A stretch of 32,641 bases of DNA from a virus. Its lineage: Duplodnaviria; Heunggongvirae; Uroviricota; Caudoviricetes. A model generated the notes under the pieces. It saw only the letters and a list, made by a program, of their open reading frames with translations. It ran no database searches and had not been told where the DNA came from. Numbering within the stretch: the first letter of the stretch is position 1; every line of letters starts with the position of its first letter. Shown here piece after piece: positions 1 through 32,641 of the stretch. The DNA lies in the IMG/VR virus record IMGVR_UViG_2671180283_000027. One strand, written 5' to 3'. Both the position numbers and the translations under genes were made by a program.

Positions 1-1362
1 ATGTTTAAACCGGAACTCCTTTCCCCGGCGGGAACGCTGAAAAATATGCGTTACGCTTTCGCTTATGGCGCAGATGCTGTTTATGCGGGCCAGCCGCGTT
101 ACTCCCTGCGTGTGCGCAACAACGAATTCAACCACGAAAATCTTCAGCTCGGCATCAATGAAGCCCACGCGCTGGGGAAAAAGTTTTATGTCGTGGTCAA
201 CATTGCACCGCACAACGCCAAGCTGAAAACCTTTATCCGTGACCTGAAACCGGTGGTGGAAATGGGGCCGGATGCGCTGATTATGTCCGATCCAGGGCTG
301 ATTATGCTGGTGCGTGAGCACTTCCCTGAAATGCCGATCCACCTCTCGGTGCAGGCTAACGCCGTAAACTGGGCGACGGTGAAATTCTGGCAGCAAATGG
401 GCCTGACCCGCGTGATCCTCTCTCGCGAGCTGTCGCTGGAAGAGATTGAAGAGATCCGCAATCAGGTGCCGGATATGGAGATCGAGATCTTCGTTCACGG
501 CGCACTGTGCATGGCCTACTCCGGTCGCTGCCTGCTCTCTGGCTATATCAACAAGCGCGATCCGAACCAGGGTACCTGCACCAACGCCTGCCGCTGGGAG
601 TACAACGTCCAGGAAGGGAAAGAAGATGACGTTGGCAACATCGTACACAAGTACGAGCCGATTCCGGTGCAAAATGTTGAGCCGACGCTGGGTATCGGCG
701 CGCCAACCGACAAAGTGTTTATGATCGAAGAAGCCCAGCGTCCGGGCGAGTATATGACCGCGTTTGAAGATGAGCACGGCACTTACATCATGAACTCGAA
801 AGATCTGCGCGCCATCGCCCATGTAGAACGCCTGACCAAAATGGGCGTGCATTCGCTGAAAATCGAAGGCCGTACTAAATCTTTCTACTATTGCGCACGC
901 ACCGCACAGGTTTACCGTAAAGCTATCGATGACGCCGCTGCGGGCAAACCGTTCGATACCAGCCTGCTGGAAACTCTGGAAGGTCTGGCGCATCGTGGCT
1001 ATACCGAAGGTTTCCTGCGTCGTCATACTCACGACGATTATCAGAACTACGAATACGGTTATTCAGTTTCTGACCGCCAGCAGTTTGTTGGTGAGTTTAC
1101 CGGTGAGCGCAAGGGGGACCTCGCGGCGGTAGCGGTGAAAAATAAATTCTCCGTTGGCGACAGCCTTGAGCTGATGACGCCGCAAGGCAACATTAACTTT
1201 ACCCTTGAGCACATGGAAAACGCCAAAGGTGAAGCGATGCCGGTCGCACCAGGCGATGGTTATACTGTGTGGCTCCCGGTCCCGCAGGATCTTGAGCTCA
1301 ATTACGCTCTGCTGATGCGTAATTTCTCCGGGGAAACCACGCGTAACCCACACGGTAAGTGA
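1..1362 (+). CDS. yegQ: U32-family peptidase YegQ (TrhP, tRNA hydroxylation); full-length 453 aa host gene
   Basis: ATG at position 1, 453-aa ORF; sequence recognised as E. coli YegQ; ordinary host G+C; lies immediately upstream of cyaR as in E. coli K-12. Confidence 0.85.
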   Translation: MFKPELLSPAGTLKNMRYAFAYGADAVYAGQPRYSLRVRNNEFNHENLQLGINEAHALGKKFYVVVNIAPHNAKLKTFIRDLKPVVEMGPDALIMSDPGLIMLVREHFPEMPIHLSVQANAVNWATVKFWQQMGLTRVILSRELSLEEIEEIRNQVPDMEIEIFVHGALCMAYSGRCLLSGYINKRDPNQGTCTNACRWEYNVQEGKEDDVGNIVHKYEPIPVQNVEPTLGIGAPTDKVFMIEEAQRPGEYMTAFEDEHGTYIMNSKDLRAIAHVERLTKMGVHSLKIEGRTKSFYYCARTAQVYRKAIDDAAAGKPFDTSLLETLEGLAHRGYTEGFLRRHTHDDYQNYEYGYSVSDRQQFVGEFTGERKGDLAAVAVKNKFSVGDSLELMTPQGNINFTLEHMENAKGEAMPVAPGDGYTVWLPVPQDLELNYALLMRNFSGETTRNPHGK

Positions 1363-1393
1363 TTAATTTCGATTATTTTTCCCGGATGGAAAA

Positions 1394-1415
1394 TTCTTAG
1401 AAACCGATCACATAC
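1394..1415 (+). promoter_or_regulatory. Candidate CRP site of the cyaR promoter, with a TATCAT -10 element at 1434-1439
   Basis: Perfect TCACA half-site at 1408-1412 with an imperfect left half; centred ~42 bp upstream of the predicted cyaR 5' end; cyaR is known to be CRP-activated. Confidence 0.4.
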
Positions 1416-1446
1416 AGCTGCATTTATTAAGGTTATCATCCGTTTC

Positions 1447-1533
1447 GCTGAAAAACATAACCCATAAAATGCTAGCTGTACCAGGAACCACCTCCTTAGC
1501 CTGTGTAATCTCCCTTACACGGGCTTATTTTTT
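1447..1533 (+). ncRNA. cyaR: CyaR (RyeE) Hfq-dependent small RNA; its 3' terminator overlaps the prophage attL core
   Basis: Sequence GCTGAAAAACATAACCCATAAAATGCTAGCTGTACCAGGAACCACCTCCTTAGCCTGTGTAATCTCCCTTACACGGGCTTATTTTTT matches my recollection of E. coli CyaR; terminator hairpin plus T-run at the 3' end. Confidence 0.8.
1507..1533. other. attL core (27 bp) of the P2-like prophage
   Basis: AATCTCCCTTACACGGGCTTATTTTTT is repeated exactly at 32078-32104; its reverse complement matches the P2 att core as I recall it. Confidence 0.75.
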
Positions 1534-1595
1534 ACGCGTAATACAATGAAATAAAAGGATTTATTTCTGGTCACGTCCACACATTGACCACATCG

Positions 1596-1621
1596 ACAAA
1601 AAAGCCCCTCGACTGAGGGGC
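1596..1621 (-). terminator. Rho-independent terminator downstream of ogr
   Basis: Stem GCCCCTC / GAGGGGC (1604-1610 and 1615-1621) with a 4-nt loop, followed on the minus strand by TTTTTT. Confidence 0.6.
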
Positions 1622-1634
1622 TTCCTGTTTGTAA

Positions 1635-1853
1635 TTACATCCACATAATTTGCTGCCCTGACGGCAACGGGTGCGGTCTTACGGCGTGGACTTCTCCCGG
1701 CTTCACGATGTATCGCTGTACCGACTCATAAGTGATGAACGTGGCGCTGCAATTCACGTTCTGACACTGGTGATAACGCTCTTTTGTCGTGTCAGTGATA
1801 TAGCGGCTTGTACGCGCATGTGCGGCATGCTGGCATAAAGGACAATGAAACAT
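1635..1853 (-). CDS. ogr: Ogr late-gene transcriptional activator (zinc-finger, 72 aa)
   Basis: MFHCPLCQHAAHARTSRYITDTTKERYHQCQNVNCSATF... recognised as P2 Ogr; start refined to the internal ATG at 1853, giving the expected 72 aa. Confidence 0.9.
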   Translation of the reverse strand: MFHCPLCQHAAHARTSRYITDTTKERYHQCQNVNCSATFITYESVQRYIVKPGEVHAVRPHPLPSGQQIMWM

Positions 1854-8296: not shown

Positions 8297-8890
8297 CTAT
8301 TTGTCCCGGTTGGCTAAGGGATGACACAATTTATTCTTTGTCGCTGATGAGGGGAATTTTTTATAGAGCGTGGACAGGCCAATATCAAAAATCAGCGCCA
8401 CGCGTTGACGTGATTCACCCGCAGCCAGCAACCGTCCTGCCTGTTCCCACTCACTCGCGGTGAGCTTCGGACGTCTGCCACCAATACGACCTTTGGCTCT
8501 GGCCGCTTCCAGTCCGGCGCGAGTCCGCTCGACAATGAGTTCTCGTTCCATTTCAGCCAGGGCACCCATCACATGAAAGAAAAAACGTCCCATCGGCGTG
8601 CTGGTATCAATGGCATCCGTCAGGCTGCGAAAATTAATGCCGCGTTCGCGCAGCTCCTCAACCAGAATAACCAGATGCCGCATACTACGCCCCAGCCGGT
8701 CCAGCTTCCAGACTACCAGTGTATCCCCCTCCGATAATGTCCTGAGCAGTTTTTTCAGTCCCGGCCTGTCGGACTTCGTGCCGCTGATTTTATCCTCAAA
8801 AATCAGCTCACATCCTGCACACTCCAGCGCGTTACGCTGCAATTCCGTATTCTGGTCATTTGTTGACACGCGGACATAGCCAATAAGCAT
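8297..8890 (-). CDS. Serine DNA invertase (Hin/Gin/Cin/Pin family, 197 aa)
   Basis: N-terminus MLIGYVRVSTNDQ with the catalytic Ser, resolvase/invertase motifs, C-terminal HTH; sits beside an inverted-repeat tail-fibre cassette. Confidence 0.9.
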   Translation of the reverse strand: MLIGYVRVSTNDQNTELQRNALECAGCELIFEDKISGTKSDRPGLKKLLRTLSEGDTLVVWKLDRLGRSMRHLVILVEELRERGINFRSLTDAIDTSTPMGRFFFHVMGALAEMERELIVERTRAGLEAARAKGRIGGRRPKLTASEWEQAGRLLAAGESRQRVALIFDIGLSTLYKKFPSSATKNKLCHPLANRDK

Positions 8891-8917
8891 GATGGATCCC
8901 CTGAATAAAAACCGGGG

Positions 8918-9424
8918 ATGATGCCAGTTAGCCGTAATCTCTGCATTTTCTTAAACGTTGGTTTGGGAGAAGGCTCCGCGCTACCGGTGGGCGTACCGGT
9001 TCCGTGGCCTCTCCCGAACCCACCACAGGGATGGCTTAAATATAACGGTGCGCCCTTCGATAAAAACATATATCCGAAATTAGGTGCAGTTTATCCGGCT
9101 GGCGTATTACCCGACTTACGCGGCGAGTTTATTCGCGGCTGGGATGATGGGCGGGGAGTGGATGCAGGGAGAATCATATTAGCTCAGCAGGGTGATGCTA
9201 TTAGAAATATTACAGGTTTCGTGAGTGGTTCTTCTGGCGTTTCGTTTGATAGTTTTTCTGGTGCTTTTTACGATTCGGGGGTAAGAAGCGGCAGAAGGCC
9301 TGAGAGTACGACTATTGTTGATATGAATGATGATTTTGCTTTTGATGCTTCCCGGGTAGTGCCAACTGCAAATGAAAATCGCCCGCGAAATCTTGCATTC
9401 AATTACATAGTTCGTGCAGCTTAA
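8918..9424 (+). CDS. Silent alternative tail-fibre C-terminal cassette (Sv'-like; no credible own start)
   Basis: Shares the repeat-encoded segment with H and the conserved C-terminal VPTANENRPRNLxFNYIVRA, but has a different ~50-aa variable stretch; the opening codons are probably an ORF-caller artefact. Confidence 0.6.
   Translation: MMPVSRNLCIFLNVGLGEGSALPVGVPVPWPLPNPPQGWLKYNGAPFDKNIYPKLGAVYPAGVLPDLRGEFIRGWDDGRGVDAGRIILAQQGDAIRNITGFVSGSSGVSFDSFSGAFYDSGVRSGRRPESTTIVDMNDDFAFDASRVVPTANENRPRNLAFNYIVRAA
8946..8971. other. Invertase crossover site (hix/gix/cix-like 26-bp site), invertase-proximal
   Basis: TTTTCTTAAACG-TT-GGTTTGGGAGAA: imperfect palindrome with half-site TTCTCnnAAACC and central TT/AA, at the outer edge of the inverted repeat. 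Confidence 0.65.
8946..9213 (+). repeat. Inverted repeat arm A (~265 bp) of the tail-fibre inversion cassette
   Basis: Near-identical by eye to the reverse complement of 10395-10661; encodes the same ~83 aa (LGEGSALPVGVPVPWPLPNPPQGW...AIRNITG). Confidence 0.85.
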
Positions 9425-9431
9425 ATGAAAA

Positions 9432-9468
9432 GCCGTCTTAATGGGGTCAGTCCATAATGACGGCTTAA
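9432..9468. terminator. Hairpin between the convergent alternative cassette and the tail fibre assembly gene (possible bidirectional terminator)
   Basis: 15-bp imperfect inverted repeat AAGCCGTCTTAATGG / CCATAATGACGGCTT around a short loop. Confidence 0.35.
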
Positions 9469-9477
9469 TCATCTTTA

Positions 9478-10083
9478 TCAAATTGAGGGCGGCTCAGGTA
9501 GTATCGCAGTTGGAAAATCTGAGGGTTTAATGGCATTCAGCGCATCAATATAATCAAGCCACAGGTTAAACTTGCTTGTTTCTGTTTCGCTCATTCGATT
9601 GAGTTGTAACTTTGAAGGCCAGTTATTTTTATTAATGACCGCATTAGCCTCATCAATCAGCGCCTGAATTTTCATTTCAAATGCCTGAACGTCAGCAACT
9701 CTTTTTGCATCGATATCCGTTATCCACTCAGTACCATTCCAGACATCAAATTGAGTTTCTGGCGCAATTGTGGTGGTATTTTCTGGAAGCTCTCCTAAAA
9801 ACCGAACAGTGATTTTCTCCCCTGTATCAGTTTTATAAACTTCTGCTTCACGGTGATCTTCAACATACTCCCAGCCGTTCAGATCTTCATTACGACAAAT
9901 AGCAAAGCCAGCCTTGAATTTGCCGGGTTTATCAGTACAGGAATGGGCAGGCACGCCCACGCCTTCTGCAAGATATTCAACGGTTGATGACAGGTACTCA
10001 CGGGTGATGGCATCATAGTTATAAACAGTGATTTCACCTGCCGATGATGCGATCCCATATGTATTCAAAATAGCTTCACTCAT
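9478..10083 (-). CDS. G: Tail fibre assembly chaperone (gpG/Tfa-like, ~201 aa)
   Basis: Directly downstream of H; C-terminal region typical of Tfa proteins; start refined to the ATG at 10083 with an AAGGA ribosome-binding site (the ORF track starts at an upstream GTG). Confidence 0.8.
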   Translation of the reverse strand: MSEAILNTYGIASSAGEITVYNYDAITREYLSSTVEYLAEGVGVPAHSCTDKPGKFKAGFAICRNEDLNGWEYVEDHREAEVYKTDTGEKITVRFLGELPENTTTIAPETQFDVWNGTEWITDIDAKRVADVQAFEMKIQALIDEANAVINKNNWPSKLQLNRMSETETSKFNLWLDYIDALNAIKPSDFPTAILPEPPSI

Positions 10084-10155
10084 TCTCTTATCCTTCGTGC
10101 TGGGGCAAGATTCTACTATACTGAGCGTCCTCACTTATTCTTGATATTGATGTTG

Positions 10156-11475
10156 TTACATAGCCCTCACAATGTAATTAAATGACAGGTTACGTGGGCG
10201 GTTTTCATTTGCAGTTGGAACCATCAAGGAAGCATCAAAAAAAAGCGCAGCAAATCTATCGTCTGTCGCTCCAATAGCAACATCTACTTGAGCGGCATAC
10301 GATCCAAACTCACCGTCAGTGCGGAAAGCACCTGTTGCCCCTGCATTAAAAAGCCTTGCTGATGTAGCTGCATTTCGTCCCTGAACCCCACCAGTGATAT
10401 TTCTAATAGCATCACCCTGCTGAGCTAATATGATTCTCCCTGCATCCACTCCCCGCCCATCATCCCAACCGCGAATAAACTCGCCGCGTAAGTCGGGTAA
10501 TACGCCAGCCGGATAAACTGCACCTAATTTCGGATATATGTTTTTATCAAAGGGTGCACCGTTATATTTAAGCCATCCCTGTGGTGGGTTCGGGAGGGGC
10601 CACGGCACCGGTACGCCCACCGGCAGTGCCGAACCTTCTCCCAAACCAAGGTATGCGAGAAGACCGGCAACATCCTTTCCACTCAAATGAGTCAGCGTCT
10701 CATCCAGTGGCTGCTTACCTGACAGCGCATTGTTAATGGTGGTACTGAATTTCGGGTCATTGTTAATGGCTGCGGCAATTTCTTTCAGTGTGTCCAGCGT
10801 GGCTGGCGCACCGTTAATCAGAGCGGTAATAGCGGCCTGAACAAACTCAGTGGTCGCAATCCGCGTGGTGTTATTTCCTGCGGCAGGCGTCGGCGCTTTT
10901 GGTTCTCCGGTAAATGTCGGATTATGTTTCTGTGCATACTGGGTATGAGGATCCTGTGCGGCAATGTGGTTTCTCATCTGGTCATCCACATACAGCCTTA
11001 ATTCCAGGACTTCATCATCCACGTATTTACGGGTCGCCAGTACCACCGACGGGTCGATTTTCAGCGTAATAGCTTCGGTATTCGTGACAACCAGAATCAT
11101 GCGGATAGTCTGGGTACGACCACTGCCTTCCTGCAACTGCGGTTTGTACGTTTCCGGGCAGTTCGCCACCGCAATGAGTACGCCTTCATCATCATAAAGC
11201 CCAATCTCACGGATCCAGAATCCGCCCTCGTTCTCAGGGATGATTTGCTCCGCAATAATCTGGCTCTGGTTGTTCGGGTCAACACTCAGAAGATTCAGTG
11301 GCGCGATGCGTTTCTGGTTAATCAGTTTTGTCTGTGCCGGGTCTGGTGTCGGCAAGACACCATTCGCATCACCAACGGCCATTTGCGTCAGATTCAGCTT
11401 ACTGCCGAGCATCGTCGCGTTAGCCAGCCGTGCTGCGCCCTGATTAGTCAGAATGGCGTAGTATTTCACTGTCAT
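10156..11475 (-). CDS. H: Tail fibre protein gpH (439 aa) with an invertible C-terminal region
   Basis: N-terminus recognisably similar to P2 gpH; downstream of I; C-terminal third lies inside the invertible segment. Confidence 0.85.
   Translation of the reverse strand: MTVKYYAILTNQGAARLANATMLGSKLNLTQMAVGDANGVLPTPDPAQTKLINQKRIAPLNLLSVDPNNQSQIIAEQIIPENEGGFWIREIGLYDDEGVLIAVANCPETYKPQLQEGSGRTQTIRMILVVTNTEAITLKIDPSVVLATRKYVDDEVLELRLYVDDQMRNHIAAQDPHTQYAQKHNPTFTGEPKAPTPAAGNNTTRIATTEFVQAAITALINGAPATLDTLKEIAAAINNDPKFSTTINNALSGKQPLDETLTHLSGKDVAGLLAYLGLGEGSALPVGVPVPWPLPNPPQGWLKYNGAPFDKNIYPKLGAVYPAGVLPDLRGEFIRGWDDGRGVDAGRIILAQQGDAIRNITGGVQGRNAATSARLFNAGATGAFRTDGEFGSYAAQVDVAIGATDDRFAALFFDASLMVPTANENRPRNLSFNYIVRAM
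10395..10661 (-). repeat. Inverted repeat arm B (~265 bp), within the 3' third of gene H
   Basis: Reverse complement matches 8946-9213 with a few mismatches. Confidence 0.85.
10636..10661. other. Invertase crossover site inside the tail fibre gene H
   Basis: TTCTCCCAAACC-AA-GGTATGCGAGAA: half-sites match 10 of 12; identical central dinucleotide to the site at 8946-8971. Confidence 0.65.
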
Positions 11476-12083
11476 GCGTTTACTCTCAGGTTATCAATTA
11501 AATGAATGGCCGAGGCCGGGAAATAATCCCCTCCGACAATAATGGCCTCCGGGGTGTAGGGATAAACCGTCAGGGCGTCACCGTGATAGCATCCCGCACC
11601 GGCAAAAATGTTGCCGGTTGTACTTAAACTGATAGCCAGTCCCGTCAGATGGCGGCTTGCCGGTTTTGCATCAGCAACGAGACGCTCCAGCTCCTGATAC
11701 ATTTCTTCGGTAATACCCTGCTCAAGCACGCCAACAACGATACGGAACGTCCCCGGCTCCTCGTTGAGCTGCCACCACTCCCTCACCTCAATCAGATAGC
11801 CGAGCGGCTCCACCACACGGCGAATCGCACCAATAGTGCCCTTATGGCAGTGAATGAAATACGCATCGCGGATAACAGCGCGTTTTGTCGCTTCCGGCCA
11901 CTTATCATCCCAGCGGTCAACCGAAAATGACCACGCCAGCCACGGCAGCAGATTTGCCGGACAGGTATCCGGGTTCCACAGCTCACGAATACTGATCGGT
12001 GTTTTTTCAATTTCCGCACAGGCTTTTGCGGCGGCAACTTCAAGCGGTGATGAGCCGGTCGGCAGTAGTCGCGAATCACTCAT
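11472..12083 (-). CDS. I: Baseplate protein gpI
   Basis: P2 order V-W-J-I-H; stop overlaps the H start (ATGA). Confidence 0.85.
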   Translation of the reverse strand: MSDSRLLPTGSSPLEVAAAKACAEIEKTPISIRELWNPDTCPANLLPWLAWSFSVDRWDDKWPEATKRAVIRDAYFIHCHKGTIGAIRRVVEPLGYLIEVREWWQLNEEPGTFRIVVGVLEQGITEEMYQELERLVADAKPASRHLTGLAISLSTTGNIFAGAGCYHGDALTVYPYTPEAIIVGGDYFPASAIHLIDNLRVNA

Positions 12084-13968: not shown

Positions 13969-14034
13969 AACGGGAAGGATGCCGCCGGGTCATACCGGCG
14001 GCAATGTGACGATGAGGTGTCAGGAATGGCACAA

Positions 14035-14487
14035 CTAACGGTCGAGGTGAGCCAGGATAATCTCTTCAATCATCTGCACATCCTCACTGGTAAAGCCGAG
14101 CAGAGGACGCGCCGGATAATCAATTTTCTTACCGTCTTTCCGGGTTTCTTCCGACAGGCCGAACTGATGCACGCTGGCGATTTTCGGTGACTTCCCGCCG
14201 TAAAATTCCATTGATGCCTGTTCCGGGCTGGCGCGGATATGCAAAAAGCGACTGGTGATAAGTTTCGCAAACATTTTTCGCTTAACACGACCGGTCTTTT
14301 TTCTGGCGCTCTGCTGCTGGCGTGGCGCGTAGGGTGTGCCGTCCGGGGCTTTCTGTGCCATCACCCGACGCTGCTGACTCTGACGCAGACGTTTCGCCAG
14401 TTCGGCACTCAGTCGTCGACGCCCTGACGGTGACAGCGACTCAATCAGTCCGGTCAGCCGGTCTTCAAAACGCTTAAACTCATTCAT
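14035..14487 (-). CDS. S: Tail completion protein gpS (150 aa)
   Basis: 150 aa as in P2 gpS; synteny. Confidence 0.85.
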   Translation of the reverse strand: MNEFKRFEDRLTGLIESLSPSGRRRLSAELAKRLRQSQQRRVMAQKAPDGTPYAPRQQQSARKKTGRVKRKMFAKLITSRFLHIRASPEQASMEFYGGKSPKIASVHQFGLSEETRKDGKKIDYPARPLLGFTSEDVQMIEEIILAHLDR

Positions 14488-14947
14488 CCCACTTGCTCAC
14501 CAGTTCGCCATTGATATACAGCTCCATCGGGCGGGTGACCGGCTCCGGCGGCGGAGGTTCCGGAATATTCTTCACATGCAGCGCGCCGTCCACCTCTCTG
14601 ACCAGCGTGCGCTCGGTCAGCATCAGGCTGATGCTGATATCAAAGCTGCTGTCATTGTTGATGTCTGCATAAAACGTGAAGCCCTTTTTCTGGCCTGCGT
14701 CGGTGGTCATGATGTCGGGCTGATTTTCCCGCAGCCACGCCAGCACCGGCACGATGAGCAGGTCAAAATCACCGGTAAAGTCGGTCACAATCACATTGAG
14801 CGTGTAACGCTTTTCGAATGACAGCGACGCCGCCAGTGTGGAGGCAATACTCCCGTTATCCACGAATATCCGCAGCATCTCGGGACTGGTTTTCAACACC
14901 GTGACGGCATCAGTCAGCGCCCTGCGCAGGCTGTCGGGTTTGAGCAT
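14480..14947 (-). CDS. R: Tail completion protein gpR (155 aa)
   Basis: 155 aa as in P2 gpR; synteny. Confidence 0.85.
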   Translation of the reverse strand: MLKPDSLRRALTDAVTVLKTSPEMLRIFVDNGSIASTLAASLSFEKRYTLNVIVTDFTGDFDLLIVPVLAWLRENQPDIMTTDAGQKKGFTFYADINNDSSFDISISLMLTERTLVREVDGALHVKNIPEPPPPEPVTRPMELYINGELVSKWDE

Positions 14948-15200
14948 CGTTTTCGTCCTGACAGTGTTTAATCATTTTTACCTGGCTGGCACAGCGCGCC
15001 AGCGCGTTCTCAAGCTGCCGGATATCGGCACTTAAATCGCCGTTCGTCTGCGGGTCACTGCCCGGCATCGGGCAAAGGCTCACTTTCGGGCAGGCGTTGT
15101 GGACAATCACTGGCGTCGGTGCAGGCGGGGCGCTGGTGCAACCGGCGCACAGCATCAGGCAGGTCAGCGCCGTACCAGCGGCGAAAATCTTCGTTTTCAT
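14910..15200 (-). CDS. lysC: LysC, Rz1-like outer-membrane lipoprotein spanin (96 aa), out of frame within lysB and overlapping R
   Basis: Internal ATG at 15200 opens MKTKIFAAGTALTCLMLCAGC, a lipoprotein signal peptide with lipobox, followed by a Pro-rich segment; 96 aa as recalled for P2 LysC. Confidence 0.75.
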   Translation of the reverse strand: MKTKIFAAGTALTCLMLCAGCTSAPPAPTPVIVHNACPKVSLCPMPGSDPQTNGDLSADIRQLENALARCASQVKMIKHCQDENDAQTRQPAQGAD

Positions 15201-15480
15201 TGAGTAACCTCGTGATGGTTTTCTCGCGCTGTGCTTCACGCTTCGCGGCGTTCTCCAGTTCCTGACGCAGTGCCACCTGCGCCAGCTCGTTTTTGTCTGC
15301 CCCGGTGATGGCAACATGAAGCTGATTTTTCAGCATGGTGATGGTCGTCTGCTGCCCGCTGGCGACGCTGTTCGCCCTGTCCAGTGAGGTGCGCAGGCTG
15401 GCGTTTTCATGCTTCGCCAGAAACAGCCCCGCCACCGCCAGTGATAACAACACAACCAGCACAATCATCAGCTTTGACAT
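15055..15480 (-). CDS. lysB: LysB, Rz-like inner-membrane spanin (141 aa)
   Basis: N-terminal transmembrane helix then a charged coiled-coil region; size and position as in P2. Confidence 0.85.
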   Translation of the reverse strand: MSKLMIVLVVLLSLAVAGLFLAKHENASLRTSLDRANSVASGQQTTITMLKNQLHVAITGADKNELAQVALRQELENAAKREAQREKTITRLLNENEDFRRWYGADLPDAVRRLHQRPACTDASDCPQRLPESEPLPDAGQ

Positions 15481-15893
15481 GGTTCCCGCCCCTCAAAACG
15501 CTGACGACAGGCCGTACGTATCAGCCGGAAGAACACCGACGCCACGAGGTAAATCAGCGCGGTAAAAATCCATCCGGCAGCGACCAGCGAGATAAACGTC
15601 GCCACCATCACCACCAGAGCCGCCGCCCGCCTGCGCCACGGCACCGGCTGTAAAAACAGCGACGTGACAATCTTCACGGCCAGCGATTCCGGCGGCAGCT
15701 CCCGTCCGTAGAGTTCCAGTACATACTCCGTGGCATACACGCCGACACCACCGGCAACCACACAGATAACCGTCGCCAGAATCGCCCAGGTGGCGACAAA
15801 ACTGACGGCCACGCTCTGCGGGTAAATCAGGGACAGTGCCAGCATCAGCGCCAGCGACACGTTCAGCATCAGTGAAAGGGATAATTTCTTCAC
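15468..15893 (-). CDS. lysA: LysA, membrane protein of the lysis cassette (141 aa)
   Basis: Multi-pass hydrophobic protein between K and lysB, as in P2. Confidence 0.8.
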   Translation of the reverse strand: MKKLSLSLMLNVSLALMLALSLIYPQSVAVSFVATWAILATVICVVAGGVGVYATEYVLELYGRELPPESLAVKIVTSLFLQPVPWRRRAAALVVMVATFISLVAAGWIFTALIYLVASVFFRLIRTACRQRFEGREPCQS

Positions 15894-15907
15894 GGTGTTT
15901 ACTCCGT

Positions 15908-16405
15908 TTAAGCCGGTACGCCGCCAGCGGTACGCCAGACGGTGACCAGTTTTTCCAGTGAATGCTCACGCTGACCGTAACCGGCACCCGGCAGGGACGC
16001 CCAGATATTGCGACAGCGTGAAATAGCGCGCTCAATGCGTCCCGCCCGGATGTCATCCAGCGCACCACGTTCGCGGATCAACTGAATGGCGAGTCTGTCC
16101 TGTGACAACGGACTGAAATCCGGCAGGGCAAGCTGTTTGCGGTAGTGCGGCCAGAACAGGTAAAGCTGCTGATAGCGACCGGAGGCCGTGGATTTTTCAC
16201 CTCGACGGTTAAACACCTTCGCCGGTCGGCCATGCGCGAACGGGTGGTCACTGTAGTCGGTGAAAATTTCCGGCTTCCCGTCCAGTCCGGTGACTATCAC
16301 GTCATAGCCCCGGTTTTTCGTCAGCGGATGATTCGCCGTCCCTTCGGACACGGCCAGCATGTCGAGAAAGGCGGCGATATTCTGATGCGTGTTAATAACC
16401 GGCAT
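15908..16405 (-). CDS. K: Endolysin gpK (165 aa)
   Basis: 165 aa as in P2 gpK; follows the holin. Confidence 0.85.
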   Translation of the reverse strand: MPVINTHQNIAAFLDMLAVSEGTANHPLTKNRGYDVIVTGLDGKPEIFTDYSDHPFAHGRPAKVFNRRGEKSTASGRYQQLYLFWPHYRKQLALPDFSPLSQDRLAIQLIRERGALDDIRAGRIERAISRCRNIWASLPGAGYGQREHSLEKLVTVWRTAGGVPA

Positions 16406-16686
16406 TACGGTTTCCCCCTGCCCTTAAAGCGGCGCTGAATGGCAATCTCAATCACCTGATAACCGGCGATACCCAGCATGGAGCCGATGCCGCACACCGC
16501 AGGCAGTGACAGGTCAGGAAACTGCACCAGAACAACACCGGCAACCATCGAGACAAAACCACCGAGCAACATGCGCCCGATAAACAGACGCGGGGTGATG
16601 GGTTCACCACCGGCAAGCACCTTGCCGACAACAATCAGCACCCCAATCATGAAAAGCGACAGGACGCTTTTTTCTTCTGCTGTCAT
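16405..16686 (-). CDS. Y: Holin gpY (93 aa)
   Basis: Small protein with hydrophobic helices; 93 aa as in P2 gpY. Confidence 0.85.
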   Translation of the reverse strand: MTAEEKSVLSLFMIGVLIVVGKVLAGGEPITPRLFIGRMLLGGFVSMVAGVVLVQFPDLSLPAVCGIGSMLGIAGYQVIEIAIQRRFKGRGKP

Positions 16687-16689
16687 GCG

Positions 16690-16893
16690 TTACTCCCACA
16701 GATTGACAGTTTCAGCCACGGGCGCGGTCTGAACGTCGGGCAGTTCGACGGCGGTGCCGTGTGGCAGCACCGCACCCAGTTCAGCCAGTCCCGGATTTGC
16801 GGCGAGCACGGTCTCAACCACGCCCTCAGTGCGCCCGTAATACCGGACACAAATGGCGTCGAGCGTGTCGCCCTGTAGCGCAAAGGTCTTCAT
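16690..16893 (-). CDS. X: Tail protein gpX (67 aa)
   Basis: Start refined to the internal ATG at 16893 (MKTFALQGDTLDAICVRYYG...), giving 67 aa; start overlaps the L stop. Confidence 0.8.
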   Translation of the reverse strand: MKTFALQGDTLDAICVRYYGRTEGVVETVLAANPGLAELGAVLPHGTAVELPDVQTAPVAETVNLWE

Positions 16894-17399
16894 CAGATTT
16901 GACTCACGATGCAGCGCGGCTTGTCCTGGATACGCGCCACCGCCCAGCGCATATCCCGCCACAGTTCATCAATGGTGCTGTCAATGCTGTCAGCCTTCTT
17001 GTCGCCTTTCGCACTGGCATCCACGCCGCGATAACGCTCATAAAGCGACGCGGTCGCCATCGCACACACGGCGCGCTCGTAGTAAAAAACTTTGATGCTT
17101 TCACCGTCGATGTCGTCCGCCGGAACGTCCGCCAGACGCGTAAAACCGGCGGCAATTTTCTGTTCGCGGTACTCGTACAGCTCCGCATTCGTCTCCGCCA
17201 TGCCTGACTTGATGGCCTCACGCAGACGGGCGGGGGCGACGGTCTGCTCAAGGCGCATACGTTCCCGGACGCGCTTCGGGTCGATATCGGGAAAAAAGAA
17301 CGTGTTTTTAATCACCGGCTCGTCGCCTGCCGGTTGCGGGATGACCACCGTACCCTCACCGGACACGGGAGCCTCCTTTCGCGGAATAATCAGCGTCAT
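16893..17399 (-). CDS. L: Head completion protein gpL (~168 aa)
   Basis: Start refined to ATG at 17399 (MTLIIPRKEAP...); position between M and X. Confidence 0.8.
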   Translation of the reverse strand: MTLIIPRKEAPVSGEGTVVIPQPAGDEPVIKNTFFFPDIDPKRVRERMRLEQTVAPARLREAIKSGMAETNAELYEYREQKIAAGFTRLADVPADDIDGESIKVFYYERAVCAMATASLYERYRGVDASAKGDKKADSIDSTIDELWRDMRWAVARIQDKPRCIVSQI

Positions 17400-17501
17400 C
17401 ACGACTACCTCTGAAAAGTCGGGCGGTGGACGCCGGTGCAGTGTCAGGTGATTCACCCTCACTGACCGGCGTGCCGCCCTGGCGCGGGGCGCATTCGGTT
17501 G

Positions 17502-18245
17502 TTAACTGGCTTTCTTTTTCGGGCGTCCACGTTTTGCCGGTGTCGCACTCCGGCTCTTACGCGGGGCGCGGGTGGCCGCTTTTGGCTGCGGCTCCGGCTT
17601 CGGTTTCAGTTCCCGCTCCAGTCGTTCAATCTCTTTTTTGACGCCTGCCTGACAGTCGAGCTGTGTCGCACGTTGCAGGTGCGCCAGCGCACCGGCGGCA
17701 TCACCAGCGTCACGCAGAAACAGACCGGTGATTTTGTTCAGCTTTGCGCGCACTTCATCAGGCATGTCTGCCGTGGCGGTCAGTGCAAGGGTCTCCGTCA
17801 GCAGGCGGGTATCCACAGACTCACCGGCAGCGTGGGCGCGCATGGCCGCGAGCGCCACCTCCTCGGTGAACATGTACGGCGGGGTGCGGCGGTGTTTACC
17901 CGGCATGGTCAGACCGTACTTCAGGGCATAACGGGCAATCTCCAGCGCACCGGCAATATCGCCGGTATCCAGACGCCACAGCATGACCGTCATCAGAATG
18001 TCATCCTGTGCACCTTTGCCCTGCTCCAGCACACCGTTCACCCACGGCAACCAGAACGGCAGCAGTTCGCGTTTTTTCGCGGCCTTCAGCTCTTTTGAAT
18101 AAATCGCTTTCAGTGTGCGCTGGTCTGCGGCCAGCTTGACCAGCATCTGCTCATAGACAGTTGCATGTCGCAGCGGGGCGGCGTCCCGCTGCGCGGTCAT
18201 CGCTGCCGAGACCCGCATCATGTGGCGCTGTGCGGGACTCATCAT
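17502..18245 (-). CDS. M: Terminase small (endonuclease) subunit gpM (247 aa)
   Basis: 247 aa as in P2 gpM; basic C-terminus; between N and L. Confidence 0.85.
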   Translation of the reverse strand: MMSPAQRHMMRVSAAMTAQRDAAPLRHATVYEQMLVKLAADQRTLKAIYSKELKAAKKRELLPFWLPWVNGVLEQGKGAQDDILMTVMLWRLDTGDIAGALEIARYALKYGLTMPGKHRRTPPYMFTEEVALAAMRAHAAGESVDTRLLTETLALTATADMPDEVRAKLNKITGLFLRDAGDAAGALAHLQRATQLDCQAGVKKEIERLERELKPKPEPQPKAATRAPRKSRSATPAKRGRPKKKAS

Positions 18246-18248
18246 CGG

Positions 18249-19322
18249 TTACGCTCCCGGCTCTGCGGTCACTTTAGTCGGTGTGGAGAAGTCACCGACC
18301 TTAATTTTTTCCACCAGACAACCGGCGGCATAGTCTTCCACCACGTAATCAATGTTCATTGACTCGTAGTTCTCCACGCGGTCGAGTTTCGGGTTTTCCA
18401 CAATCACGCGGCGATGGCTGTCATCCATGTAGTAGATGGACAGGTTTTCCAGCTTCGTGATGAGCATCGCATCCGCCGGGAAGTACGGGACGCGTACCGC
18501 CGGCAGGTTACCGATGCGTTTCTGGCTGATGATGACGTCAGCGGCCAGCATCTCGCTGTTGTCCTGCTCCTTGTTGACGATGGGGAAATACTTGTCCGCC
18601 AGTAGCTGACGCCCCACAATCACCACAAGGTCAGGGTCTTCCTGATACCACGGCTCAATCAGGTTGTTGGTCGCATCCATCACCAGTGCATCGAGGCTGG
18701 CATAATCACCGCCCTTACCCACGCGGATGACCTCAGAGGTCGTGTGACCTTCCTCGTCAGTAACCTTGCTCATCACGCGCGCCGGGGCTTCATTGCGGTA
18801 TTTCTGCAGCCAGCCGACCGCCACATCCTGCAGCATCTGGTTACTGCTGCGGTCAGAGGTTTCGGCACGCCTCACGCCGTTAAAACCGGCCATGATTAAA
18901 TCAAGGGACTGGCGTTTGATAATGGCGTTACGGACACGGAGCTGGAAATCCTGATAACGCGCCCACAGGTCAAGCGTTTTGTAGCGGATATAAAAATCGA
19001 AGTTAATCTGGTCGCATTCGTACTTGTTTGACGCCAGCTTCGAGAAGTCCTTCGGCTGACGCTCGGTGCCACCGGCGGTGTCTGTGGTGCTGGCGATGGA
19101 GCCGGTGACACCAATACCAATTTTTTCCCCTTTCATTTCGCTGACCGGCACAATGTTGATGCGGGTCAGAAAGTCAGAGGACTCCTGCATGGTGTTCATC
19201 AGGGTCTGGGTGACCGACGGTTCAACGGTGAATTTTTTCGACACATCACCGGCGTCGATGCCGTTCAGTTCGGCAACACGGGACAGGTAGGCATTAAATT
19301 TAAAGCGGGTTTCCTGGCGCAT
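18249..19322 (-). CDS. N: Major capsid protein gpN (357 aa)
   Basis: 357 aa as in P2 gpN; synteny. Confidence 0.9.
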   Translation of the reverse strand: MRQETRFKFNAYLSRVAELNGIDAGDVSKKFTVEPSVTQTLMNTMQESSDFLTRINIVPVSEMKGEKIGIGVTGSIASTTDTAGGTERQPKDFSKLASNKYECDQINFDFYIRYKTLDLWARYQDFQLRVRNAIIKRQSLDLIMAGFNGVRRAETSDRSSNQMLQDVAVGWLQKYRNEAPARVMSKVTDEEGHTTSEVIRVGKGGDYASLDALVMDATNNLIEPWYQEDPDLVVIVGRQLLADKYFPIVNKEQDNSEMLAADVIISQKRIGNLPAVRVPYFPADAMLITKLENLSIYYMDDSHRRVIVENPKLDRVENYESMNIDYVVEDYAAGCLVEKIKVGDFSTPTKVTAEPGA

Positions 19323-19380
19323 AGTTTTTCCTGAAATTAAGGGTTAATCGTGAAGGTTTTCCCGGACTGGCTGACGCCGG

Positions 19381-20235
19381 TCAGCAGTTCGTCATCAGGG
19401 CGTCACCGCCACCTCCGGTGGCCTTGCTGCGGCGCTGCTGGGTCAGACTTTCGGTGTGGTCGAGACTGTTTTTCAGGCGGCTGAATGCCTGGCTGGTTTC
19501 ATCCGCCCTGTCAGTCACCTCCTGCTTAAGTGCGGAAAAGGCGGTTTCCATCTCAGCGAGGCGCTGCTCAGTGGCGCTCAGTTTTTCCTGCACATGTTCA
19601 GCAACAGCGGTCACCGCTTCATGCACGTCATTCAGACGGGCGTCATCGCTGGCCTGTTTGCGGCCAAAAATGGACTTCACCTTTTCGGTCAGGGCGGTGA
19701 ACACGGTTTCAGGCAGGTCTTCAAATTCCAGCTCAACAGGCGTTGCCACTGAAATCAGGTTTTCAGGGCTTAATTTGAAGCGGTTCAGGGGGTTGTGTTT
19801 TGCCGTGCGGCAGAATTCCAGATATTCCGTGCCGAGGCTTGCCGGGTCATCGGTGACGGCCAGACCCACCAGATAACATTTGCCGGTGTTGGCAAAGTTC
19901 GGCTGAATTTCCATTGAGGTGTAGACCTTCTGTGCGGCCTTGTTCATCGCGATAAGGTCATCGGTCGGGGTGATTTTCGCAAACAGCGCCCATTTGCCTT
20001 TCAGCGCCGAATCATCGTCAATCTTTTCGGCCTTCAGTTCGGCCACATCGCCATAACGTTTAAAAATGCCGTCAGGCAGGATGCCTCGCAGATGTTCCAG
20101 GTTAATACGGCAACCATAGACACGCGGGTCAAAGGTTTCCGCCATTTCCTGAATATCCTGCGCACTGATGACACGCCCGTCACAGGTGTCACCCTCAACG
20201 CCGATACGAAAGAATTTTGAGACTTTTTTTGCCAT
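19381..20235 (-). CDS. O: Capsid scaffold protein gpO (284 aa)
   Basis: Start refined to ATG at 20235 (MAKKVSKFF...), giving the P2 gpO length; divergent from P. Confidence 0.85.
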   Translation of the reverse strand: MAKKVSKFFRIGVEGDTCDGRVISAQDIQEMAETFDPRVYGCRINLEHLRGILPDGIFKRYGDVAELKAEKIDDDSALKGKWALFAKITPTDDLIAMNKAAQKVYTSMEIQPNFANTGKCYLVGLAVTDDPASLGTEYLEFCRTAKHNPLNRFKLSPENLISVATPVELEFEDLPETVFTALTEKVKSIFGRKQASDDARLNDVHEAVTAVAEHVQEKLSATEQRLAEMETAFSALKQEVTDRADETSQAFSRLKNSLDHTESLTQQRRSKATGGGGDALMTNC

Positions 20236-20408
20236 TGTCAGGAGTCCTGAATAGTGATTAGAGGAGTCACATGTCGGCATCAGTTTCCCGACGATGCGCA
20301 TCCTCCGCCATCAGTCCCGGATGGCTTATCACTGACACAACAGCACCTTAGCGAATCGCGGGGCGCGACTCAGTAGCCTTGCCGTGTATTCATCACGGCG
20401 AGGTATTC

Positions 20409-22181
20409 ATGACCATCACCACAGACACCACTCTTTTACACGACCCGCGTCGTCAGGCGGCGCTGCTGTACTGGCAGGGGTTTTCCGTGCCGCAGATTGC
20501 CGCCATGTTGCAGATGAAACGCCCGACGGTGCAGAGCTGGAAACAGCGCGACGGCTGGGACAGCGTTGCCCCCATCAGCCGTGTCGAAATGAGTCTGGAA
20601 GCGCGGCTGACCCAGCTCATCATCAAACCGCAGAAAACCGGCGGTGACTTCAAGGAAATTGACCTGCTGGGACGCCAGATTGAACGACTGGCACGGGTCA
20701 ACCGCTACAGTCAGACCGGCAACGAGGCAGACCTTAATCCGAACATCGCTAACCGCAACAAAGGCGGGCGGCGCAAACCGAAAAAGAATTTTTTCAGTGA
20801 CGAGGCCATCGAAAAGCTGGAGCAGATTTTCTTTGAGCAGTCTTTCGACTATCAGTTGCACTGGTATCGCGCCGGGCTTGAGCACCGCATCCGCGATATC
20901 CTGAAATCCCGCCAGATTGGCGCGACGTTTTATTTTTCCCGCGAGGCGCTGCTGCGCGCCCTGAAAACCGGTCATAACCAGATTTTTCTGTCGGCCAGTA
21001 AAACGCAGGCGTATGTGTTCCGCGAATACATCATCGCCTTTGCCCGGCTGGTTGACGTTGACCTGACCGGTGACCCGATTGTCCTGGGCAATAACAGCGC
21101 AAAACTGATTTTTCTCGGCACCAACTCCAACACCGCGCAGAGCCATAACGGCGACCTGTACGTCGACGAGATTTTCTGGATCCCGAATTTTCAGGTACTG
21201 CGTAAGGTGGCATCAGGTATGGCCTCACAGAGTCACCTGCGCTCGACCTATTTCTCCACCCCGTCCACGCTGGCGCACGACGCCTATCCGTTCTGGTCCG
21301 GTGAACTGTTTAACCGGGGACGCGCCAGCGCCGCCGAACGCGTGGAAATCGACGTCAGTCATAACGCCCTTGCCGGAGGTCTTCTCTGTGCGGACGGCCA
21401 GTGGCGGCAGATTGTCACCATTGAGGACGCCCTGAAAGGTGGCTGCACACTGTTCGACATTGAGCAGCTCAAACGTGAAAACAGCGCCGACGATTTTAAA
21501 AACCTGTTCATGTGTGAATTTGTTGACGACAAGGCGTCGGTGTTCCCGTTCGAGGAGCTGCAACGCTGCATGGTCGACACGCTGGAAGAATGGGAAGACT
21601 ATGCGCCGTTTGCCGCAAATCCGTTCGGCTCACGTCCGGTATGGATTGGTTACGACCCGTCACACCGTGGCGACAGCGCCGGATGCGTGGTGCTGGCACC
21701 GCCGGTGGTGGTCGGTGGCAAATTCAGAATACTTGAGCGTCACCAGTGGAAAGGCATGGACTTTGCCACTCAGGCGGAATCCATCCGCAAACTCACCGAA
21801 AAATACAACGTCGAATACATCGGTATTGATGCCACCGGCCTTGGTGTCGGCGTGTTCCAGCTCGTGCGCTCGTTCTATCCCGCCGCGCGCGATATCCGCT
21901 ACACGCCGGAAATGAAGACCGCAATGGTGCTCAAGGCAAAAGACGTTATCCGCCGTGGCTGTCTGGAATATGACGTCAGCGCCACCGACATCACCAGCTC
22001 GTTTATGGCTATCCGCAAGACCATGACCAGCAGCGGACGCAGCGCCACCTATGAGGCCAGCCGCAGCGAGGAAGCCAGCCACGCCGACCTCGCCTGGGCG
22101 ACCATGCACGCCCTGTTAAATGAGCCACTCACCGCCGGTATCAGCACCCCGCTGACATCCACCATTCTGGAGTTTTACTGA
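20409..22181 (+). CDS. P: Terminase large (ATPase) subunit gpP (590 aa)
   Basis: Start refined to ATG at 20409 with a GAGG ribosome-binding site; 590 aa as in P2 gpP. Confidence 0.9.
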   Translation: MTITTDTTLLHDPRRQAALLYWQGFSVPQIAAMLQMKRPTVQSWKQRDGWDSVAPISRVEMSLEARLTQLIIKPQKTGGDFKEIDLLGRQIERLARVNRYSQTGNEADLNPNIANRNKGGRRKPKKNFFSDEAIEKLEQIFFEQSFDYQLHWYRAGLEHRIRDILKSRQIGATFYFSREALLRALKTGHNQIFLSASKTQAYVFREYIIAFARLVDVDLTGDPIVLGNNSAKLIFLGTNSNTAQSHNGDLYVDEIFWIPNFQVLRKVASGMASQSHLRSTYFSTPSTLAHDAYPFWSGELFNRGRASAAERVEIDVSHNALAGGLLCADGQWRQIVTIEDALKGGCTLFDIEQLKRENSADDFKNLFMCEFVDDKASVFPFEELQRCMVDTLEEWEDYAPFAANPFGSRPVWIGYDPSHRGDSAGCVVLAPPVVVGGKFRILERHQWKGMDFATQAESIRKLTEKYNVEYIGIDATGLGVGVFQLVRSFYPAARDIRYTPEMKTAMVLKAKDVIRRGCLEYDVSATDITSSFMAIRKTMTSSGRSATYEASRSEEASHADLAWATMHALLNEPLTAGISTPLTSTILEFY

Positions 22182-23215
22182 TGAGCAAGAAAAAAGGGAA
22201 AACACCGCAACCTGCGGCAAAAAAAATGACCGCCAGCGCCCCGAAAATGGAGGCATTCACCTTTGGTGAACCGGTGCCGGTACTCGACCGCCGTGACATT
22301 CTGGATTACGTCGAGTGCATCAGTAACGGCAGATGGTATGAGCCACCGGTCAGCTTTACCGGTCTGGCAAAAAGCCTGCGTGCTGCCGTACATCACAGCT
22401 CACCGATTTACGTCAAACGTAATATTCTGGCTTCAACGTTTATTCCGCACCCGTGGCTTTCCCAGCAGGATTTCAGCCGCTTTGTGCTGGATTTTCTGGT
22501 GTTCGGTAATGCGTTTCTGGAAAAGCGTTACAGCACCACCGGTAAGGTCATCAGACTGGAAACCTCACCGGCAAAATATACCCGCCGTGGCGTGGAGGAG
22601 GATGTTTACTGGTGGGTGCCGTCCTTCAACGAGCCGACAGCCTTCGCGCCCGGCTCCGTGTTTCACCTGCTGGAGCCGGATATTAATCAGGAGCTGTACG
22701 GCCTGCCGGAATATCTCAGCGCCCTTAACTCTGCCTGGCTGAATGAGTCGGCCACGCTGTTCCGCCGCAAGTATTACGAAAACGGCGCACATGCCGGATA
22801 CATCATGTACGTCACTGATGCCGTGCAGGATCGCAACGATATCGAAATGCTTCGCGAAAACATGGTGAAGTCAAAAGGCCGCAACAACTTTAAAAACCTG
22901 TTTCTCTATGCCCCACAGGGGAAAGCCGACGGCATTAAAATTATCCCGCTCAGTGAAGTGGCAACGAAGGACGATTTTTTTAATATCAAAAAAGCCAGCG
23001 CCGCTGACCTGCTGGACGCGCACCGCATCCCCTTTCAGTTGATGGGCGGCAAGCCGGAGAACGTCGGGTCGCTGGGCGATATTGAGAAAGTGGCAAAGGT
23101 CTTTGTCCGCAATGAACTTATCCCGTTACAGGACAGGATCCGCGAGATAAACGGCTGGCTCGGCCAGGAGGTCATCCGCTTTAAAAACTACTCACTGGAC
23201 ACTGACAACGGCTGA
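22181..23215 (+). CDS. Q: Portal protein gpQ (344 aa)
   Basis: 344 aa as in P2 gpQ; start overlaps the P stop. Confidence 0.9.
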   Translation: MSKKKGKTPQPAAKKMTASAPKMEAFTFGEPVPVLDRRDILDYVECISNGRWYEPPVSFTGLAKSLRAAVHHSSPIYVKRNILASTFIPHPWLSQQDFSRFVLDFLVFGNAFLEKRYSTTGKVIRLETSPAKYTRRGVEEDVYWWVPSFNEPTAFAPGSVFHLLEPDINQELYGLPEYLSALNSAWLNESATLFRRKYYENGAHAGYIMYVTDAVQDRNDIEMLRENMVKSKGRNNFKNLFLYAPQGKADGIKIIPLSEVATKDDFFNIKKASAADLLDAHRIPFQLMGGKPENVGSLGDIEKVAKVFVRNELIPLQDRIREINGWLGQEVIRFKNYSLDTDNG

Positions 23216-23219
23216 CATC

Positions 23220-23241
23220 GCCGCCTGCGGGCGGCTTTTTT
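23220..23241 (+). terminator. Rho-independent terminator after Q
   Basis: Stem GCCGCC / GGCGGC with loop TGCG, followed by TTTTTT. Confidence 0.7.
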
Positions 23242-23383
23242 ACACCCCGTCATCACGCCCTCACACGCTCACCACCGCACAAAACACCCCACAGACACAC
23301 CAACGCCCCGGCGCACAATCCAAACGCCGTCACGACGCGCTGAGACGCTGAAAAAATAAAATCAGCACCACCGCCAGCGCGCA

Positions 23384-23402
23384 GTGCTTTCCCCGCCTCG
23401 CC
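23384..23402. other. cos site (19-nt cohesive-end sequence)
   Basis: GTGCTTTCCCCGCCTCGCC is the reverse complement of GGCGAGGCGGGGAAAGCAC, which I recall as the P2 cohesive end; lies in a C-rich tract just past Q. Confidence 0.7.
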
Positions 23403-23477
23403 CGCCCGCTTCATGGGGCGGTTTTAATGCAACAATGCACCTTCTCTAAAACAGGCAGGATAAACTATGAACGATAA

Positions 23478-23516
23478 AAATCCCCAACAGCCAGTGCATG
23501 CAAATACATGCACTGG
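23478..23516 (-). terminator. Rho-independent terminator of the cargo gene
   Basis: Perfect 10-bp stem CCAGTGCATG / CATGCACTGG (23491-23516) with a 6-nt loop, followed on the minus-strand transcript by a TTTTT run. Confidence 0.5.
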
Positions 23517-23533
23517 TATGCAAATTATAAGCC

Positions 23534-25885: not shown

Positions 25886-26151
25886 TCTTTTTCCTTAATT
25901 AATTGTTAAGTTTCAATTACAACCAACACAATAAACTTAAGAAAATCAATATAATGCACAACAACAAAACTCACAATACCTTACACGCTCGTTACCTACT
26001 GCAAACTTATCTTGCAATACTAATAATCAAGTTTGAAATCATAATATCACCACATGAAATTGCCATATCGCAGAGGCTCCTTACTCGACAACTAAAATGT
26101 TTATACTCCAAAAAGTAAGTTTCTTACTTTTTAACCGCATTAATTTCTACA

Positions 26152-31998: not shown

Positions 31999-32077
31999 CG
32001 TTTAAGGGCTTTCAGTGGTAATTTATGCCGCTCAAACCCGCATTGTACCGTTGAAAGCCCCTACTGGTGACACCCTA

Positions 32078-32104
32078 AATCTCCCTTACACGGGCTTATT
32101 TTTT
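32078..32104. other. attR core (27 bp)
   Basis: Exact repeat of the attL core at 1507-1533. Confidence 0.75.
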
Positions 32105-32263
32105 TATGCATAAGCCCTATCTCTGGTAACCGTCTTCCATTGACCACATCGATAGAATCCTCCTTCATAGCACGATGCCTTTCACTTATCGGCATCGTGC
32201 TCCCACAGGTTCCGGCTACGCACAGCCAGAACGCGCATATTTGACGCTTACCAAAAAATATTC

Positions 32264-32581: not shown

Positions 32582-32641
32582 CTCACCTTCCCCCATTAAA
32601 TACCAACGACACTCTCTAGTGTTTAAATATAATAATGGCAT

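Follow-up and report, generated by a model that had tools for sequence, protein, structure and literature searches.

CyaR (RyeE) is a small RNA (sRNA) that depends on both Hfq and CRP. The 27-nt core of the P2 attachment site and the remnant of a P2-like prophage carried by E. coli K-12 have been known since the P2 literature of the early 1990s. Temperate phages and islands that integrate into tRNA genes, into the tmRNA gene (ssrA) or into the 3' end of other sRNA genes (sdsR/ryeB in Salmonella) bring with them the 3'-terminal sequence of the structured RNA that they target (Bobay et al., 2013; PMC3603311), and the gene is rebuilt at one junction and partially duplicated at the other. E. coli ryeE was already known as a phage target (Bobay et al., 2013, citing Wassarman et al., 2001; PMC3603311), and a tabulation of insertion sites gives "cyaR RNA" for Wphi2 (P2) of E. 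coli W, for the ogr-D' element of K-12 and for P2*B of strain B (Archer et al., 2011, Table 2; PMC3032704). A P2-type prophage at cyaR is an already known and published arrangement, and roughly one complete E. coli genome in five shows it.

The stretch of DNA analysed here (the window; 32,641 nt) almost certainly comes from an E. coli lysogen with a complete P2-type (Peduovirus) phage integrated at the primary P2 site, which overlaps the 3' end of cyaR, and with cyaR regenerated at the left junction, attL (Table 1). None of the observations speaks against this reading. The integration site lies between yegQ and yegR and is presumably locI, the primary site of P2 in E. coli. As in the tRNA, tmRNA and sRNA cases, the last bases of a structured RNA gene are also present on the phage, and the gene is whole at one junction and present as a partial duplicate at the other. 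Unlike in tRNA-type targets, what is used is not a tRNA stem but the intrinsic terminator of an sRNA, and the core holds part of the terminator hairpin. The likeness to P2 at its primary site extends to an identical attP core, to the order of P arm, IHF site, core, Cox region, P' arm and int, to the gene order (at 94-97% identity), and to the host locus, listed as "cyaR RNA" (PMC3032704). The cryptic P2 remnant of K-12 (ogrK-D') shares the attL junction, but of the phage genes only ogr and the 3' part of D are left in it, whereas the window holds a whole prophage between two perfect cores.

Table 1. Positions of host, attachment-site and prophage features in the window.
Feature	Position	Strand	Basis
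yegQ (trhP), host gene upstream of cyaR	1-1362	+	453-aa complete ORF; RefSeq naming
Putative cyaR promoter region: CRP-like half-site TCACA 1408-1412, -10-like TATCAT 1434-1439	1397-1439	+	read from the letters
cyaR (ryeE) sRNA gene, complete	1447-1533	+	Rfam RF00112 and fold
CyaR intrinsic terminator: stem-loop 1498-1525, T tract 1526-1533	1498-1533	+	terminator scan, fold energy
attL core, 27 bp, identical to P2 attP core	1507-1533	+	exact repeat, P2 annotation, alignment
attL phage arm	1532-1596		ungapped coordinate transfer from P2
Predicted IHF site, attL	about 1532-1565		transfer from P2 24324-24357
P2-type (Peduovirus) prophage body	1534-32077		BLAST against AF063097, Pfam, phage database matches
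Predicted Int P-arm site, attL	1569-1596		transfer from P2 24293-24320
ogr / F-operon terminator hairpin	1601-1624		P2 annotation 24265-24288; + strand scan
ogr, late-gene activator	1635-1853	-	Pfam Ogr_Delta 2e-21; transfer from P2 24036-24254
P2 fun(Z), G and distal H replaced by serine invertase and other fibre/assembly genes	8318-11646		
Nonessential orf30 (in P2 between S and V) absent; ~64 bp between conserved blocks	13969-14032		
cos region, equal to P2 cosL 1-19, internal to the prophage	~23384-23402		block 14033-23402 ends at P2 base 1; approximate, as this block contains gaps
P2 old, tin and orf91 replaced	23403-26166		
int, 337-aa tyrosine integrase, reads toward attR	30985-31998	+	Pfam Int_N, Phage_integrase
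attR phage arm: P' arm and Cox-binding region	31964-32061		transfer from P2
attR P' arm, two GTGTCCACA repeats	31970-31978 and 31981-31989		transfer from P2 24470-24496
Predicted Cox region, attR	31988-32061		transfer from P2 24399-24472
attR core, second 27-mer copy, promoterless cyaR 3' fragment	32078-32104	+	exact repeat
P2 P-arm-like relic in attB host flank	32118-32157		30/40 positions identical to 1562-1601
yegR, host gene right of attB	32264-32581	-	RefSeq annotation of identical stretch

cyaR and the att core at the two junctions

Positions 1445-1530 of the + strand match the Rfam covariance model of CyaR_RyeE (RF00112) over its full length (model positions 1-85 of 85) with 100.7 bits against a gathering score of 47 (E = 3e-19), and this is the sole Rfam match across the window. 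The gene call rests on Rfam; cyaR is not annotated in the RefSeq records of the E. coli loci that were retrieved, ATCC 8739 and K-12 included. An earlier reading of the letters without database searches (the sequence-only reading) had correctly assigned the sRNA to cyaR, and the gene that it placed at 1447-1533 equals the Rfam match with the T tract added. The RNA is predicted to fold into a small hairpin and a strong terminator (z = -3.0). The terminator hairpin has 11 pairs and a 6-nt loop (1509-1514), is followed by TATTTTTT, and has a fold energy of -15.5 kcal/mol (z = -6.7), i.e., the U-tailed Rho-independent terminator of CyaR/RyeE is present in the window. So is the conserved context of the sRNA downstream of yegQ, a synteny that is equal in ~120 species. 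The stretch matching yegQ is named yegQ/trhP by RefSeq in essentially every E. coli genome, and the host of the window is therefore E. coli. Upstream of cyaR the DNA agrees with the K-12 and ATCC 8739 loci from 1417/1430 onward. Judging from the published biology of CyaR, the region at 1397-1439 may serve as a cAMP-CRP-dependent cyaR promoter; a generic sigma-70 scan gave no promoter match there. Neither a tRNA nor a tmRNA gene was found in the window, which rules out both as the integration target.

The 27-mer AATCTCCCTTACACGGGCTTATTTTTT occurs exactly twice in the window, once at each end of the prophage, and a chance origin of this repeat is ruled out by the 0 matches obtained in 100 shuffles. 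It is identical to the annotated attP of phage P2 (AF063097, 24356-24382), and in an alignment of attL, attR, the empty attB, the K-12-like locus and P2 attP the identity between attP and attB comprises exactly these 27 bases. Homology to P2 stops exactly at both core copies; it begins at 1507 and runs rightwards through ogr, D, U, T, E, FII and FI, and it ends at 32104, which is approached from the left through A, B, cox, C and int. The sequence-only reading equated the core with the terminator hairpin and U-tract of cyaR, and this is about two-thirds right. The loop, the 3' arm (1515-1525), the T tract and the last 2 nt of the 5' arm of the hairpin do belong to the core, whereas 1498-1506, the other nine bases of that arm, are not part of it and are found in the host only.

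The unoccupied site was represented by a synthetic sequence, in which window positions 1200-1533 are joined to 32105-32641, and this was searched in 5,426 complete E. coli genomes. Many of them matched it in one piece at 100% over 871 bp, e.g., ATCC 8739 and BLR(DE3), and 4,563 carried at least 80% of the query in one place, a count that takes in loci with small remnants since nearby pieces get joined. In ATCC 8739 the matching stretch consists of yegQ, an unannotated gap and yegR. Alignment with this strain places the core inside cyaR in unoccupied genomes, as expected from the sequence-only reading, and bears out that the phage rebuilds the 3' end of the sRNA: from 1430 to 1533 the attL copy is identical to the empty-site allele. 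cyaR is regenerated base for base at attL because the 27 bases with which the gene ends are present without any change on the phage. A partial copy of the cyaR 3' end is also found again at attR, where it comprises 24 nt if the gene is ended as in Rfam and 27 nt if it is ended at 1533. This copy lacks the 5' arm, and together with its phage-side flank it does not fold into a terminator (-3.1 kcal/mol, z = -0.8); GGGCUUAU of the attR core pairs instead with AUAAGCCC of the host flank.

If Int, IHF and Cox act here as they do in P2, the phage tyrosine integrase together with IHF would exchange strands inside the 27-bp core. The junctions of the window are an attL consisting of the 5' part of cyaR, the core and the P-arm/ogr side of the phage, and an attR consisting of the int/P'-arm side, the core and the host flank, with attR left with a promoterless cyaR fragment unable to fold as a terminator.

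The prophage compared with P2 and with remnants at the same site

The 30.6 kb between the cores are colinear with P2 in four blocks of 94.4-97.4% identity (BLAST against AF063097). The int, C, cox, B, A, capsid, tail and lysis blocks are all there, as is cos, the ORF lengths are as in P2, with int equal in length to P2 Int, and Pfam domains were found for Ogr, gpD, the tape measure protein, gpA and the tyrosine integrase. The ends of the prophage are laid out as in P2, with the integrase gene beside one junction and the arm-type, IHF and Cox sites in the P2 arrangement; the P arm at attL is identical to that of P2 in the alignment, and so are ~75 nt to the left of the attR core. Three P2 modules have been swapped or lost (Table 1), and these match genes marked as nonessential in the P2 record, i.e., orf30, fun(Z), tin and old. 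The phage of the window is therefore best described as a relative of P2 and not as P2 itself, with a fibre module linked to an invertase, no orf30, and an AAA_13 / PDC-S06 gene.

The region from 8297 to 11475 encodes a serine DNA invertase of 197 aa (Resolvase and HTH_7 domains) beside an ORF of 168 aa on the opposite strand with a tail-collar domain, adjoined by a tail-fibre assembly gene and a shortened gpH-like fibre gene (439 aa). It looks like an invertible host-range module that replaces fun(Z), G and distal H. In place of old-tin-orf91, the - strand at 23534-25885, which lies between cos and gene A, encodes a 783-aa AAA_13 ATPase whose match to the PADLOC candidate defence family PDC-S06 spans the full length (E = 6.5e-154).

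Junctions of the same kind are frequent. The attL junction was scored as present where a 300-bp query with base 1533 at its centre was covered to at least 80%; this is the case in 1,167 of the 5,426 complete E. coli genomes, and the attR junction is present in 812. With attL exceeding attR by ~355 genomes, a prophage with both junctions is expected in some 15% of the genomes and a remnant in another ~6-7%. K-12 has the same attL junction as the window, with ogrK and a truncated D behind it (98.3% identity over 725 bp). Where the K-12 remnant ends on the right, the last 18 nt of the core (ACACGGGCTTATTTTTT plus T) are joined to the middle of gene D, which implies that the deletion that formed the remnant ended inside attR.

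As remnants such as ogrK-D' of K-12 are common at the cyaR site, with more attL than attR junctions, and as three P2 modules are replaced or missing in the window, it could be argued that the element studied here is itself a defective or cryptic remnant, and that its two repeats are a historical scar from which excision and reintegration no longer take place. We consider this unlikely. Both cores are perfect, the arm, IHF and Cox regions are P2-like or identical to P2, the genes from int to lysis are colinear with P2 and have P2-like ORF lengths, cos is in place, and the modules that have been replaced are those marked as nonessential. A complete P2-type prophage remains the preferred reading, and from its intact-looking ORFs it would probably be able to excise and to form particles.

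CyaR in the lysogen

The sequence-only reading pointed out that the phage sequence after attL differs from the host flank after attR, so that integration could alter what lies downstream of the CyaR terminator. Immediately after the core the two flanks do differ (ACGCGTAAT on the phage side at attL, TATGCATAA on the host side at attR), but they are not wholly unrelated, as 30/40 positions are shared after an offset of 15 nt. The T run is also affected, with 6 T at attL against 7 in attB/attR of this host. The sequence downstream of the core is thus changed as suggested, but there is little to support an effect of this change, since attB alleles with 6 T are the commoner ones and K-12 itself is of the attL type. 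Among the attR flanks that were collected, ~40 come from 6-T and ~11 from 7-T attB alleles, and the locus of the GTDB representative of E. coli (L064) carries a 6-T attB allele.

One contig from another genus bears on the same question. In IMGVR_UViG_2568526497_000005 (~2540-2625; L147) yegQ is 92.7% identical to that of Enterobacter, and an Enterobacter-type 5' arm of the terminator, GCCTGCGT, is joined to a P2-type 3' arm, ACACGGGC, and to a P2 flank. The predicted stem contains a C.A mismatch and has a fold energy of -11.6 kcal/mol compared with -17.0 for the native Enterobacter stem, i.e., a loss of 5.4 kcal/mol. At the level of sequence this single case is direct evidence that the phage supplies the 3' arm at attL, and that the sRNA can be changed when phage and host alleles do not match.

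It is conceivable that the lysogen of the window is converted through its sRNA, with the new flank or the shorter T run altering termination, the 3' U tail, Hfq binding or read-through. The changed sequence and T run after the core would agree with this, as would the weakened chimeric stem in the Enterobacter-type locus and the loss at attL of an inverted repeat of attB, GGGCTTAT-N10-ATAAGCCC (32092-32117), which overlaps the 3' arm and the T tract of the attR core copy. Such an effect is nevertheless quite improbable here. The RNA-coding sequence through 1533 is that of the empty allele, the 6-T run is common among E. coli attB alleles, the bidirectional ogr terminator reads as a second terminator-like hairpin on the + strand (1602-1623), 70 nt past cyaR, and the junction is present in a fifth of E. 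coli genomes. A functional change of CyaR by integration is also unlikely because K-12 carries the identical attL junction with the ogrK-D' remnant behind it. CyaR was characterised in K-12, and what is known about this sRNA would then come from an attL-type allele. Regeneration of an unchanged cyaR is the reading that we retain, and from what is known of P2, with the equal junction of K-12 as indirect support, CyaR would be expressed normally in the lysogen.

The host flank and cyaR as a phage site in other genera

The host flank to the right of attB contains 40 nt that resemble the P arm of P2 (Table 1). An exact 15-mer, CATTGACCACATCGA, is found within the window only at the P arm and in this relic, with 0 occurrences expected by chance. 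The relic lies 15 nt nearer to the core than the P arm does in P2, and of the two arm-type repeats it retains a single one (ATGTGGTCA, read on the opposite strand). It is found in the empty site of ATCC 8739, and two divergent E. coli alleles of the flank have it (L002 and L064). In E. coli, as seen in ATCC 8739, the relic, yegR and AT-rich DNA make up an insert of ~0.8 kb that starts exactly after the CyaR T tract. Neither Escherichia sp. E1V33 nor most other genera have this insert. A scan for the CyaR seed and loop in one genome per species gave 120 loci, and in most of these yegS starts 126-200 nt after the seed motif, which indicates that the ancestral order is yegQ-cyaR-yegS; in most genera outside E. 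coli yegS follows cyaR within ~100-150 nt. YegR of L064 is only 65% identical to the copy in the window, and the yegR insert is therefore polymorphic. The "empty" E. coli site may consequently be a scar, specific to E. coli, left by an older P2-like element, and the arm-type Int site that the relic has kept beside attB might contribute to the site preference of P2.

There is no direct support for yegR as phage cargo. A tblastn search of 50,697 phage records with yegR returned two records only, a 2.4-kb fragment and ON470606.1, which also holds the int-to-yegR stretch of the window, and PADLOC gave no defence match for yegR, so that neither search identified an independent phage homologue or a defence homologue of YegR. 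The search for a degenerate second core in the right-hand part of this insert gave no more than a short T run (GACTTTTTAT), which aligned with the T tract of E1V33. The flank also contains a 10-bp stem, AGCACGATGC...GCATCGTGCT (32170-32200), after the relic and before the end of yegR; neither this hairpin nor the one at 32092-32117 is followed by a T run on either strand.

P2-like phages are found at cyaR also outside E. coli. In Citrobacter youngae and another enterobacterium Ogr and gpD are encoded directly after cyaR, and in E. albertii, Buttiauxella, an Enterobacter and others a P2-type IHF and P-arm motif follows the gene. IMG/VR contigs gave 121 matches, which are split into attL-type sites and attR- or attP-type sites and which show three main variants of the 3' arm, ACACGGGC, ACGCAGGC and ACGCGGGC. 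Where the flank of an attR site is not of the E. coli type, the variant in the core is not of that type either (ACGCAGGC or ACGCGGGC), which indicates that the phage copy tracks the allele of the host. In five such IMG/VR attR sites from non-E. coli hosts (L130, L132, L138, L149 and L222) the phage flank to the left of the core reads CTGTAAGGG(A/G)GG..A; as this is partly complementary to CTCCCTTAC of the core, attP of these phages would have an inverted repeat across the left core boundary, which P2 does not have. A locus labelled Enterobacter hormaechei B56 (CP170191.1) has an E. coli-type cyaR terminator and a yegQ fragment 100% identical to the protein of the window, and its species label may be wrong.

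The use of the site by P2-like phages in several genera, and the phage-like relic directly after the terminator in the empty E. coli site, could be taken to mean that the CyaR terminator is itself of phage origin, an ancient P2-like phage having donated the 3' end of the gene, but this is hardly credible, as a terminator with the same conserved loop is found across ~120 species of Enterobacterales, in most of which yegS is the next gene and phage DNA is lacking (Serratia, Pectobacterium, Photorhabdus and Yersinia included), and as the stem co-varies with the host lineage while the phage cores follow the host allele. A host terminator copied by the phage is the reading to be preferred. A wider proposal joins these observations: the cyaR terminator would be a long-lived landing site of P2-like phages throughout the Enterobacteriaceae, the "empty" E. 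coli site an old scar, and integration across genera a source of chimeric and weaker terminators. We put this forward tentatively and consider it doubtful as a whole, if clearly less so than the other alternatives discussed above.

The window itself holds a standard P2-type lysogen at the standard site with the sRNA intact, and neither this nor the side observations alter what is currently understood. For annotation it follows that cyaR is complete in the window and that the 27-mer at 32078-32104 is not a second or partial cyaR gene. The host-matched cores, the chimeric terminator and the relic provide natural material on how att-site mimicry constrains or changes an sRNA terminator, and if chimeric terminators do arise across genera as proposed, lysogeny could occasionally generate functional sRNA alleles.
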